From NCBI RefSeq assembly GCF_003334385.1, contig NZ_QOWN01000018.1: a DNA stretch of 64,000 nucleotides; one strand, given 5' to 3'. Of this stretch, positions 24,939-25,133 are shown piece by piece; the stretch's first letter is position 1, and each line of letters begins with the position of its first letter. Origin of the DNA: Escherichia coli. Its GTDB lineage: Bacteria > Pseudomonadota > Gammaproteobacteria > Enterobacterales > Enterobacteriaceae. The position numbers were made by a program, and so were the translations under genes. Under the pieces are notes generated by a model. The model was not told the DNA's origin. It did not search any database and worked only from the letters and a program-made list of their open reading frames with translations.

Positions 24939-25015
24939 TTTCGCTTTAAAACATATCATGAAACTGGGTATGTTTTGTCTGCCTGCTCTGGGATCGCTGG
25001 GGCGGGCATTTTTTT
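24939..25015 (+). ncRNA. flgO: flgL 3' UTR ending at an intrinsic terminator; candidate 3'-UTR-derived sRNA (FlgO)
   Basis: About 77-nt segment from the flgL stop to the terminator; a sigma28-dependent sRNA from the flgL 3' UTR has been described in E. coli (recalled, exact ends not verified). Confidence 0.4.
24980..25015 (+). terminator. Rho-independent terminator of flgKL
   Basis: Stem TGCCTGC / GCGGGCA (one G-U pair) followed by seven Ts (25009-25015). Confidence 0.6.
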
Positions 25016-25082
25016 GCCTATTTTGCATTGTTGGTTAGCAAGGATGCCATTCGATGAATTTTAATATGTTGATTCAAAGATG

Positions 25083-25112
25083 AAATAAAAAAGCCCTGGC
25101 AGTTACCAGGGC
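25083..25112 (-). terminator. Rho-independent terminator of rne
   Basis: Hairpin GCCCTGG-CAGTTA-CCAGGGC preceded on plus strand by AAATAAAAAA (U-tract on the minus transcript), 22 nt past the rne stop. Confidence 0.65.
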
Positions 25113-25133
25113 TTGATTACTTTGAGCTAATTA

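Follow-up and report, generated by a model that had tools for sequence, protein, structure and literature searches.

The convergent flgL–rne junction of Escherichia coli: the known small RNA FlgO, its conserved hairpin loop as a candidate seed, and a separate predicted rne terminator

Layout of the flgL–rne junction

The window (the whole stretch of 64,000 nucleotides of E. coli DNA that was analysed) contains the convergent genes flgL and rne (Table 1). The stop codon of flgL is TAA at 24936-24938 and that of rne occupies 25134-25136 on the minus strand, which leaves a gap of 195 bp. Over positions 24900-25140 the window is 100% identical to MG1655 (E. coli K-12), and a 501-nt query covering the junction matched every one of the 5426 complete E. 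coli genomes, where the genes annotated beneath the match are flgL and rne. Strain 720632 (NZ_CP025842.1) has the same sequence as the window from 24800 to 25300 (100% identity), and its flgL carries a pseudogene annotation with an internal stop (positions 686-1639 of the locus L001).

When positions 24000-26000 were scanned with a terminator consensus, nine terminator-like sites were found versus 2.0 ± 1.4 in shuffled sequences, and the two best sites were the plus-strand hairpin of the small RNA (sRNA) FlgO and a minus-strand hairpin behind rne. With high confidence, the interval between the two genes is composed of the already described FlgO and a separate terminator of the convergent rne.

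Table 1. Features at the flgL–rne junction and candidate pairing sites of FlgO (window positions unless a coding sequence, CDS, or a locus is named)
Feature	Position	Strand	Remark
sigma28-type promoter-like site	22270-22296	+	TCAAGTCC-N11-GCCGATAA; 34 nt upstream of flgK ATG
flgL coding sequence	23985-24938	+	317 aa; parental mRNA of FlgO
Match to RNase E core motif RN↓WUU	24937-24941	+	AA↓UUU, perfect; predicted cut 24938/24939
FlgO sRNA	24938-25015	+	78 nt; RefSeq MG1655 ncRNA flgO (b4826)
FlgO stem-loop 1 (fold)	24947-24977	+	11-bp stem, 24947-24957 with 24967-24977; 9-nt loop 24958-24966
Conserved loop segment, candidate seed	24960-24969	+	GAAACUGGGU; FlgO nt 23-32
flgKL/FlgO intrinsic terminator	24980-25015	+	stem-loop 24980-25008; U7 25009-25015
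AT-rich spacer between both terminators	25016-25082		
Predicted rne intrinsic terminator	25081-25114	-	stem-loop 25114-25091, then UUUUUUAUUU
rne coding sequence	25134-28319	-	1061 aa; convergent with flgL
flgA candidate site	14347-14355	-	AACCCAGTTTCG
gatC candidate site			CCCGGTTTCAT; 11 bp with one G-U
gatC predicted site	CDS nt about 1254-1264		CCCGGUUUCAU
msrB candidate site			GGCCCAGTTTCT
msrB predicted site	CDS nt about 197-208		GGCCCAGUUUCU
ptsH candidate site	CDS nt about 58-67		GCCCAGTTTG
gatA candidate site			ACCCAGTT
yhjA candidate site			ACCCGGTTT
yhjA predicted site			ACCCGGUUU
MFS transporter 3′ of the FlgO terminator	loci L010, L016, L028, L046, L042 and others		

FlgO is the sRNA of the flgL 3′ UTR

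A first, sequence-only reading of this DNA had proposed that the flgL 3′ UTR gives rise to a sigma28-dependent sRNA and had named it FlgO. This identification was confirmed by sequence identity, by the RefSeq entry, by published coordinates and by a published primer. The MG1655 gene flgO (b4826, "small RNA FlgO") is annotated at 1140986-1141063, which corresponds to 24938-25015 of the window, and its first base is the last base of the flgL stop codon. The coordinates given by Bar et al. 2021 (PMC8175672) agree with RefSeq, and the flgO cloning primer 5′P-ATTTCGCTTTAAAACATATCATG of Melamed et al. 2023 (PMC10578931) starts at 24938. At the other end, a Term-seq 3′ end was mapped to 1141063(+), position 25015 of the window, where the U tract ends (Adams et al. 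2021, PMC7815308). Judged from its sequence, the element is the known FlgO, and its identification is thus correct but not new. The size of 77 nt proposed before has to be adjusted to the annotated 78 nt, counted from 24938.

FlgO belongs to a set of four sRNAs that derive from UTRs and depend on sigma28. Northern blots show it as a doublet of about 75 nt that is strongly lowered in a fliA deletion mutant, which is the published evidence for the sigma28 dependence, and it is strongly enriched with Hfq by co-immunoprecipitation and RIL-seq, ranking fourth among the Hfq-enriched sRNAs (Melamed et al. 2023, PMC10578931). The short RNA and the 3′ end at 25009-25015 by which the proposal was to be checked are therefore already on record, as the northern signal of about 75 nt and the Term-seq end at 25015. 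A 5′-phosphate-dependent exonuclease (TEX) depletes FlgO, and its 5′ end is accordingly reported as processed (Melamed et al. 2023, PMC10578931). The flgL 3′ UTR was independently listed as TEX-sensitive by Iosub et al. 2020 (PMC7213987).

No Rfam 15 family was found at 24938-25015 even at E values up to 1. When 22000-30000 was searched, no family covering FlgO was obtained besides the matches to rne5 and to REP-like elements. A match to asX2 at 25021-25114 was dismissed as chance (22 bits versus a gathering score of 70, E = 0.66). The REP/BIME-like palindrome lies downstream of rluC on both strands (29883-29955), and it scored 54 bits against the Rfam family naRNA4 (CssrE), just under the gathering score of 59.5.

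Transcription and 5′ end of FlgO

The consensus search found no sigma28-like site near FlgO. The sigma28-type site upstream of flgK has three mismatches to TAAAGTTT-N11-GCCGATAA and a perfect -10 element. From the established knowledge of the flagellar regulon it is taken to be the class 3 flgKL promoter, and it is likely the source of the sigma28-dependent flgKL–FlgO transcription. flgK and flgL are also reached by read-through from the class 2 flg operon that precedes them. Elsewhere in the window, the minus strand carries a near-perfect sigma28 consensus with one mismatch at 14124-14150 (TAAAGATT-N11-GCCGATAA), which is probably the class 3 flgMN promoter inside or beside flgA.

At the 5′ end, the predicted AA↓UUU cut lies 1 nt downstream of the annotated start of FlgO, where the sequence reads UA↓AUU, and the motif matched at the flgL stop codon is a short one. 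RN↓WUU is the core motif of RNase E, whose sites are enriched at stop codons, where cleavage releases Hfq-bound 3′ fragments (Chao et al. 2017, PMC5222698). The motif at the stop codon together with this general pattern points to RNase E as the enzyme that would cut the 5′ end of FlgO. Two adjacent cut sites could give rise to the doublet.

In the proposed order of events, transcription of flgKL would start at the sigma28 promoter in front of flgK, in addition to read-through from the class 2 flg operon, and would end at 25015, where RNA polymerase halts at the intrinsic terminator. The transcript would then be cut at the flgL stop codon (AA↓UUU) by an endonuclease, most likely RNase E, and the freed 78-nt FlgO would be bound and stabilised by Hfq via the terminator hairpin and the U tail.

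Fold and terminator of FlgO

Folded as RNA, 24938-25015 forms two hairpins with an energy of -28.5 kcal/mol (z = -3.9), which was equalled by none of 200 shuffled sequences. From 5′ to 3′, FlgO begins with a variable tail and a short run of U, continues with a covarying hairpin that carries the conserved apical loop GAAACUGG, and ends with the terminator hairpin. The latter has a stem of 12 pairs and a 5-nt loop followed by T7, and in K-12 the stem is made of seven G-C, four G-U and one A-U pairs. The sequence-only reading was thus right in placing a plus-strand terminator with seven Ts at 24980-25015, whereas its count of one G-U pair was too low, there being four in K-12. The U7 tail is long enough (at least six) for the Rho-independent terminator of processed 3′ UTR sRNAs, and a terminator hairpin with a U7 tail is a feature expected of an Hfq binder. 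At position 24998, K-12 and some other strains carry T where other Escherichia carry C (GATCGCTGGGG versus GATCGCCGGGG), and the T changes a G-C pair of the terminator stem to G-U.

Conservation and covariation of FlgO

Homologous loci were collected with FlgL as the query in one genome per species, which gave 69 loci. From these, 62 distinct flgL 3′ UTRs of about 20 genera were aligned, each running from the stop codon up to the first stretch of at least six T. The stretch that aligns with FlgO is 71-83 nt long across the 62 sequences. Homologues are present in Escherichia, Citrobacter, Kluyvera, Atlantibacter, Cedecea, Lelliottia, Leclercia, Kosakonia, Trabulsiella, Franconibacter, Silvania and others, and a different flgL 3′ flank was found in three Pseudocitrobacter and two Hafnia loci. 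The Salmonella locus was not recovered in this one-genome-per-species scan; the FlgO loop is said to differ in Salmonella (Melamed et al. 2023, PMC10578931). Two of the collected loci carry unexpected labels. One is a contig of 280 nt in an Arthrobacter agilis assembly (L072, NZ_VHIM01000044.1) that is essentially identical to the flgL–FlgO sequence of E. coli K-12, and the other is an enterobacterial flgL–FlgO locus labelled Chryseobacterium sp. (L041, CACSKA010000011.1). Both are likely to be contamination or mislabelling.

Both hairpins of FlgO were recovered from the alignment by RNAalifold, with compensatory changes in 13 of the 18 pairs. Hairpin 1 showed such changes in eight of its nine consensus pairs, and 97.1% of its cells were paired. 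For the two helices together, 97.3% of the cells were paired versus 89.1 ± 0.4% in column shuffles, none of which reached the observed value in 500 trials. Cells changed on both sides numbered 90, compared with 18.7 in the shuffles, and the covariation score was 0.351 versus 0.193. When the 3′ partners were slid by 1-3 columns, the pairing fell to 27-54%. The terminator stem and the U tail were kept in all 62 aligned sequences.

The mean identity was 0.34 in the 5′ tail, 0.88 in the U run before hairpin 1, 0.86 in the loop of hairpin 1, 0.65 in the terminator loop and 0.96 in the U tail, and the loop motif GAAACYGG was present in 52 of the 62 homologues. E. albertii, Pluralibacter and Pseudenterobacter are among those with a deviating loop. 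Because the stem covaries while the sequence of the loop is conserved, the alignment indicates that hairpin 1 is under selection for both structure and loop sequence across the Enterobacteriaceae. Two ORFs that overlap FlgO (24820-25038 on the plus strand and 24846-25028 on the minus strand) were rejected as coding, because the indels among the homologues are not multiples of three and the variation compensates base pairs.

The predicted rne terminator and the variable spacer

The hairpin behind rne has a stem of 10 pairs (six of them G-C) and a 4-nt loop, lies 20 nt after the stop codon, and is followed by UUUUUUAUUU from 25090 downward; in the scan of 24000-26000 the stem was also recorded as trailed by TTTTTTATTT. 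The rne 3′ UTR folds with -21.3 kcal/mol (z = -4.8), and none of 200 shuffled sequences was as good. A G+C-rich hairpin with a U tract was found 15-30 nt past the rne stop codon in all 17 relatives in which the stop could be located. The stem sequences differ among these 17 relatives, therefore the element is conserved in position and divergent in sequence. An experimental rne 3′ end is absent from the examined supplements of Adams et al. 2021 (PMC7815308) and of the TERMITe paper. From the fold and the comparison, this minus-strand hairpin is predicted to terminate rne independently of the FlgO terminator. A separate minus-strand terminator of rne had been proposed at this place and holds in this form, except that the stem begins at 25114 and not at 25112.

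With a convergent gene pair and a short intergenic region, the junction resembles the known bidirectional intrinsic terminators. It differs from them in that the hairpins are 67 nt apart and that the rne hairpin, when read on the plus strand, is followed by GATTACTTTG. A bidirectional terminator was rejected, since the U tracts belong to two separate hairpins, each of which has such a tract on a single strand. At the other end of the gene, the minus strand of 28344-28680 gave a full-length match to the Rfam family RF00040 (rne5; 260 bits, E = 2e-81), the autoregulatory element of the RNase E 5′ UTR.

The DNA between the two terminators is variable. In 687 of the 5426 complete E. coli genomes (~13%), a cassette of ~880 bp takes the place of most of the spacer (about 25018-25080); it lies on the minus strand in a single copy and keeps both terminators at its borders (positions 3119-4000 of the locus L003). 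It encodes a TacT-like GNAT toxin of 164 aa (best solved relative PDB 7ak7_A, E = 8e-76) and a DUF1778/TacA antitoxin of 97 aa. The K-12 spacer was also considered as a scar of this cassette, which was rejected on a homology score of 22 versus 21.8 ± 3.4 in shuffles. Outside Escherichia, the gene that follows FlgO is mostly a different one. By tblastn, rne was found downstream of flgL in 17 loci only, and an MFS transporter gene came first in the others. In most non-Escherichia Enterobacteriaceae the end of this convergent gene (~400 aa) is only a few bases away from the FlgO terminator. Judged from these loci, the rne neighbourhood of FlgO is incidental.

A candidate seed in the loop of hairpin 1

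The RIL-seq partners of FlgO are listed in supplementary file 1 of Melamed et al. 2023 (PMC10578931), where the pairing of FlgO was not analysed. Sites complementary to the conserved loop came to light when the top partners were inspected. Duplexes predicted for the whole molecule, with long internal loops, were uninformative in their energies and served only to spot sites for the loop. For the seed test a fixed rule was applied, by which a sense-strand transcript counted as a partner when it was seen under two or more conditions, or when a single condition yielded 50 or more chimeric fragments; 19 transcripts (11.5 kb) qualified. They were compared with 102 coding sequences of non-partners, which came from the window and the same loci and, at ~105 kb, cover only a small part of the genome. 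The best duplex energy of each partner to FlgO nt 18-34 was summed, so that the statistic is free of a threshold. A version with 15 partners preceded the one with 19.

For the 19 partners, taken as whole transcripts and not by chimera coordinates, and with four of them inspected before the test was designed, the sum was -248.7 versus -220.8 for length-matched background segments (P = 0.00075). Six partners were at or below -15 kcal/mol, compared with 0.98 expected. Eleven control queries, namely the loop in reverse, nine shuffled versions of it and the 5′ tail, gave P values between 0.14 and 0.999, none of which was significant. These results show that complementarity to the loop is enriched in the RIL-seq partners, and the loop is therefore suggested as the seed.

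The preferred model of its function, tentative and somewhat short of an even chance, is that FlgO is a base-pairing sRNA with the apical loop of hairpin 1, GAAACUGGGU, as its seed, which would pair with CCCAGUUUC-like sites. The predicted sites would lie mostly inside coding regions, in msrB, flgA, gatC, gatA, ptsH, yhjA and glf (Table 1). For the gat partners the caveat applies that K-12 has a gatR gene interrupted by IS3E and therefore unusually high levels of gat mRNAs. The genes of sugar uptake among the FlgO partners are gatC, gatA, ptsG (5′ UTR), ptsH, lamB, dhaK and garP.

Two further observations concern the loop and the partner list. The complement of the FlgO loop, CCCAGTTTC, occurs in exact copies at 43143-43151 on the minus strand and at 54696-54704 on the plus strand. 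Both lie opposite to long ORFs (41788-43251 plus and 54473-57985 minus, respectively), and the window holds four copies in total versus 0.35 expected, when those of flgA and of the FlgO antisense strand are counted. The top RIL-seq odds ratios of FlgO were by far those with RNAs antisense to 23S rRNA (rrlG.AS, 19-76; rrlH.AS, 40).

Discussion

The element at the end of flgL agrees with the published FlgO (b4826; Melamed et al. 2023) in sequence, position, ends (24938/25015), origin and terminator, and is the same gene. With the type II 3′ UTR sRNAs CpxQ, SroC, NarS, MalH and GadF, FlgO shares the use of the mRNA's intrinsic terminator, Hfq binding and expression from the parental promoter, and probably also the cut at or near the stop codon. 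For those sRNAs targets have been validated, and the seed is usually single-stranded and close to the 5′ end, whereas FlgO is least conserved in its 5′ tail and has no conserved unpaired stretch other than the hairpin loop. FliX, MotR and UhpU share with FlgO the sigma factor, Hfq binding, origin from a UTR and expression in late exponential phase. In contrast to FlgO, which showed no phenotype, they alter flagella number or motility, with fliC, the S10 operon and lrhA as targets.

Two alternatives concern the origin of FlgO and its setting next to rne. FlgO might be the primary transcript of its own promoter at the end of flgL, as a sigma70-like site (TTGTCG-16-AATAAT) is present at 24912-24939, and a start ~7 nt downstream would give an RNA of ~70 nt that might explain one band of the doublet. 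This is extremely improbable. The site is weak (9/12) and no more frequent than chance (one per 2 kb versus 1.3 expected from shuffles), its -10 element covers part of the stop codon and the bases behind it, which vary among the homologues, and the published FlgO is TEX-sensitive and fliA-dependent (PMC10578931; PMC7213987). The convergent layout, with only 195 bp between the stop codons, had also been offered as a possible source of transcriptional interference or antisense RNA by read-through. In such a case, flagellar expression and RNase E levels would be coupled. It seems very unlikely that the junction works in this way, since each gene ends in a strong hairpin and U-tract terminator of its own, 67 nt from the other, and a published 3′ end was mapped at the first of them (PMC7815308). 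Nor is the spacing or the adjacency itself conserved, because the toxin-antitoxin cassette parts the terminators in 687 of the 5426 E. coli genomes, and most other genera carry a convergent MFS transporter gene in place of rne while FlgO is conserved. In addition, rne has its own autoregulatory 5′ UTR element. The idea of interference was therefore found to be unsupported.

What FlgO does once it is made can be read in other ways than by loop pairing. Overexpression of FlgO left flagella number and motility unchanged, its RIL-seq partner set was the smallest of the four sigma28 sRNAs and had low odds ratios, and the authors raised the possibility that FlgO does not work as a conventional base-pairing sRNA (Melamed et al. 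2023, PMC10578931). As they proposed, FlgO might mainly titrate Hfq or recruit a protein late in flagellar assembly instead of pairing with particular mRNAs, which is rather unlikely but a serious alternative. Its fourth rank on Hfq, set against the smallest partner set and the lack of an overexpression phenotype (PMC10578931), would fit this role, and so would the strong terminator with its U7 tail, which is typical of RNAs tightly bound to the proximal face of Hfq. But titration alone leaves unexplained why a conserved loop is kept on a covarying stem in ~20 genera and why the RIL-seq partners show complementarity specifically to the loop. Titration of Hfq and pairing by the loop are not mutually exclusive. 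The lack of phenotype and the low odds ratios (PMC10578931) would equally suit a 78-nt decay remnant of the flgKL mRNA that is stable under the protection of Hfq and has no function in trans, and the enrichment of RNase E sites at stop codons, which leave Hfq-bound 3′ fragments (PMC5222698), agrees with it as well; stem-loop 1 would then act in cis, for instance on the stability of the mRNA 3′ end. This is unlikely, and more so than titration, because the terminator alone suffices for protection of the 3′ end. A plain terminator would not need a conserved extra hairpin, yet this hairpin keeps its length, position and loop sequence while its stem covaries. A covarying stem with a constant loop therefore indicates selection on the loop itself, and the enrichment of loop complementarity among the partners also speaks against a mere remnant.

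FlgO is among the most Hfq-enriched RNAs of E. coli and has no reported target or phenotype. To the published description, the present analysis adds a structure backed by covariation, the taxonomic spread, a candidate loop seed and a polymorphic cassette site. If the model of pairing through the loop of hairpin 1 is true, FlgO would gain a mechanism and the sigma28 regulon a metabolic output, and the last step in the synthesis of the hook-filament junction would be linked to sugar uptake and other functions.
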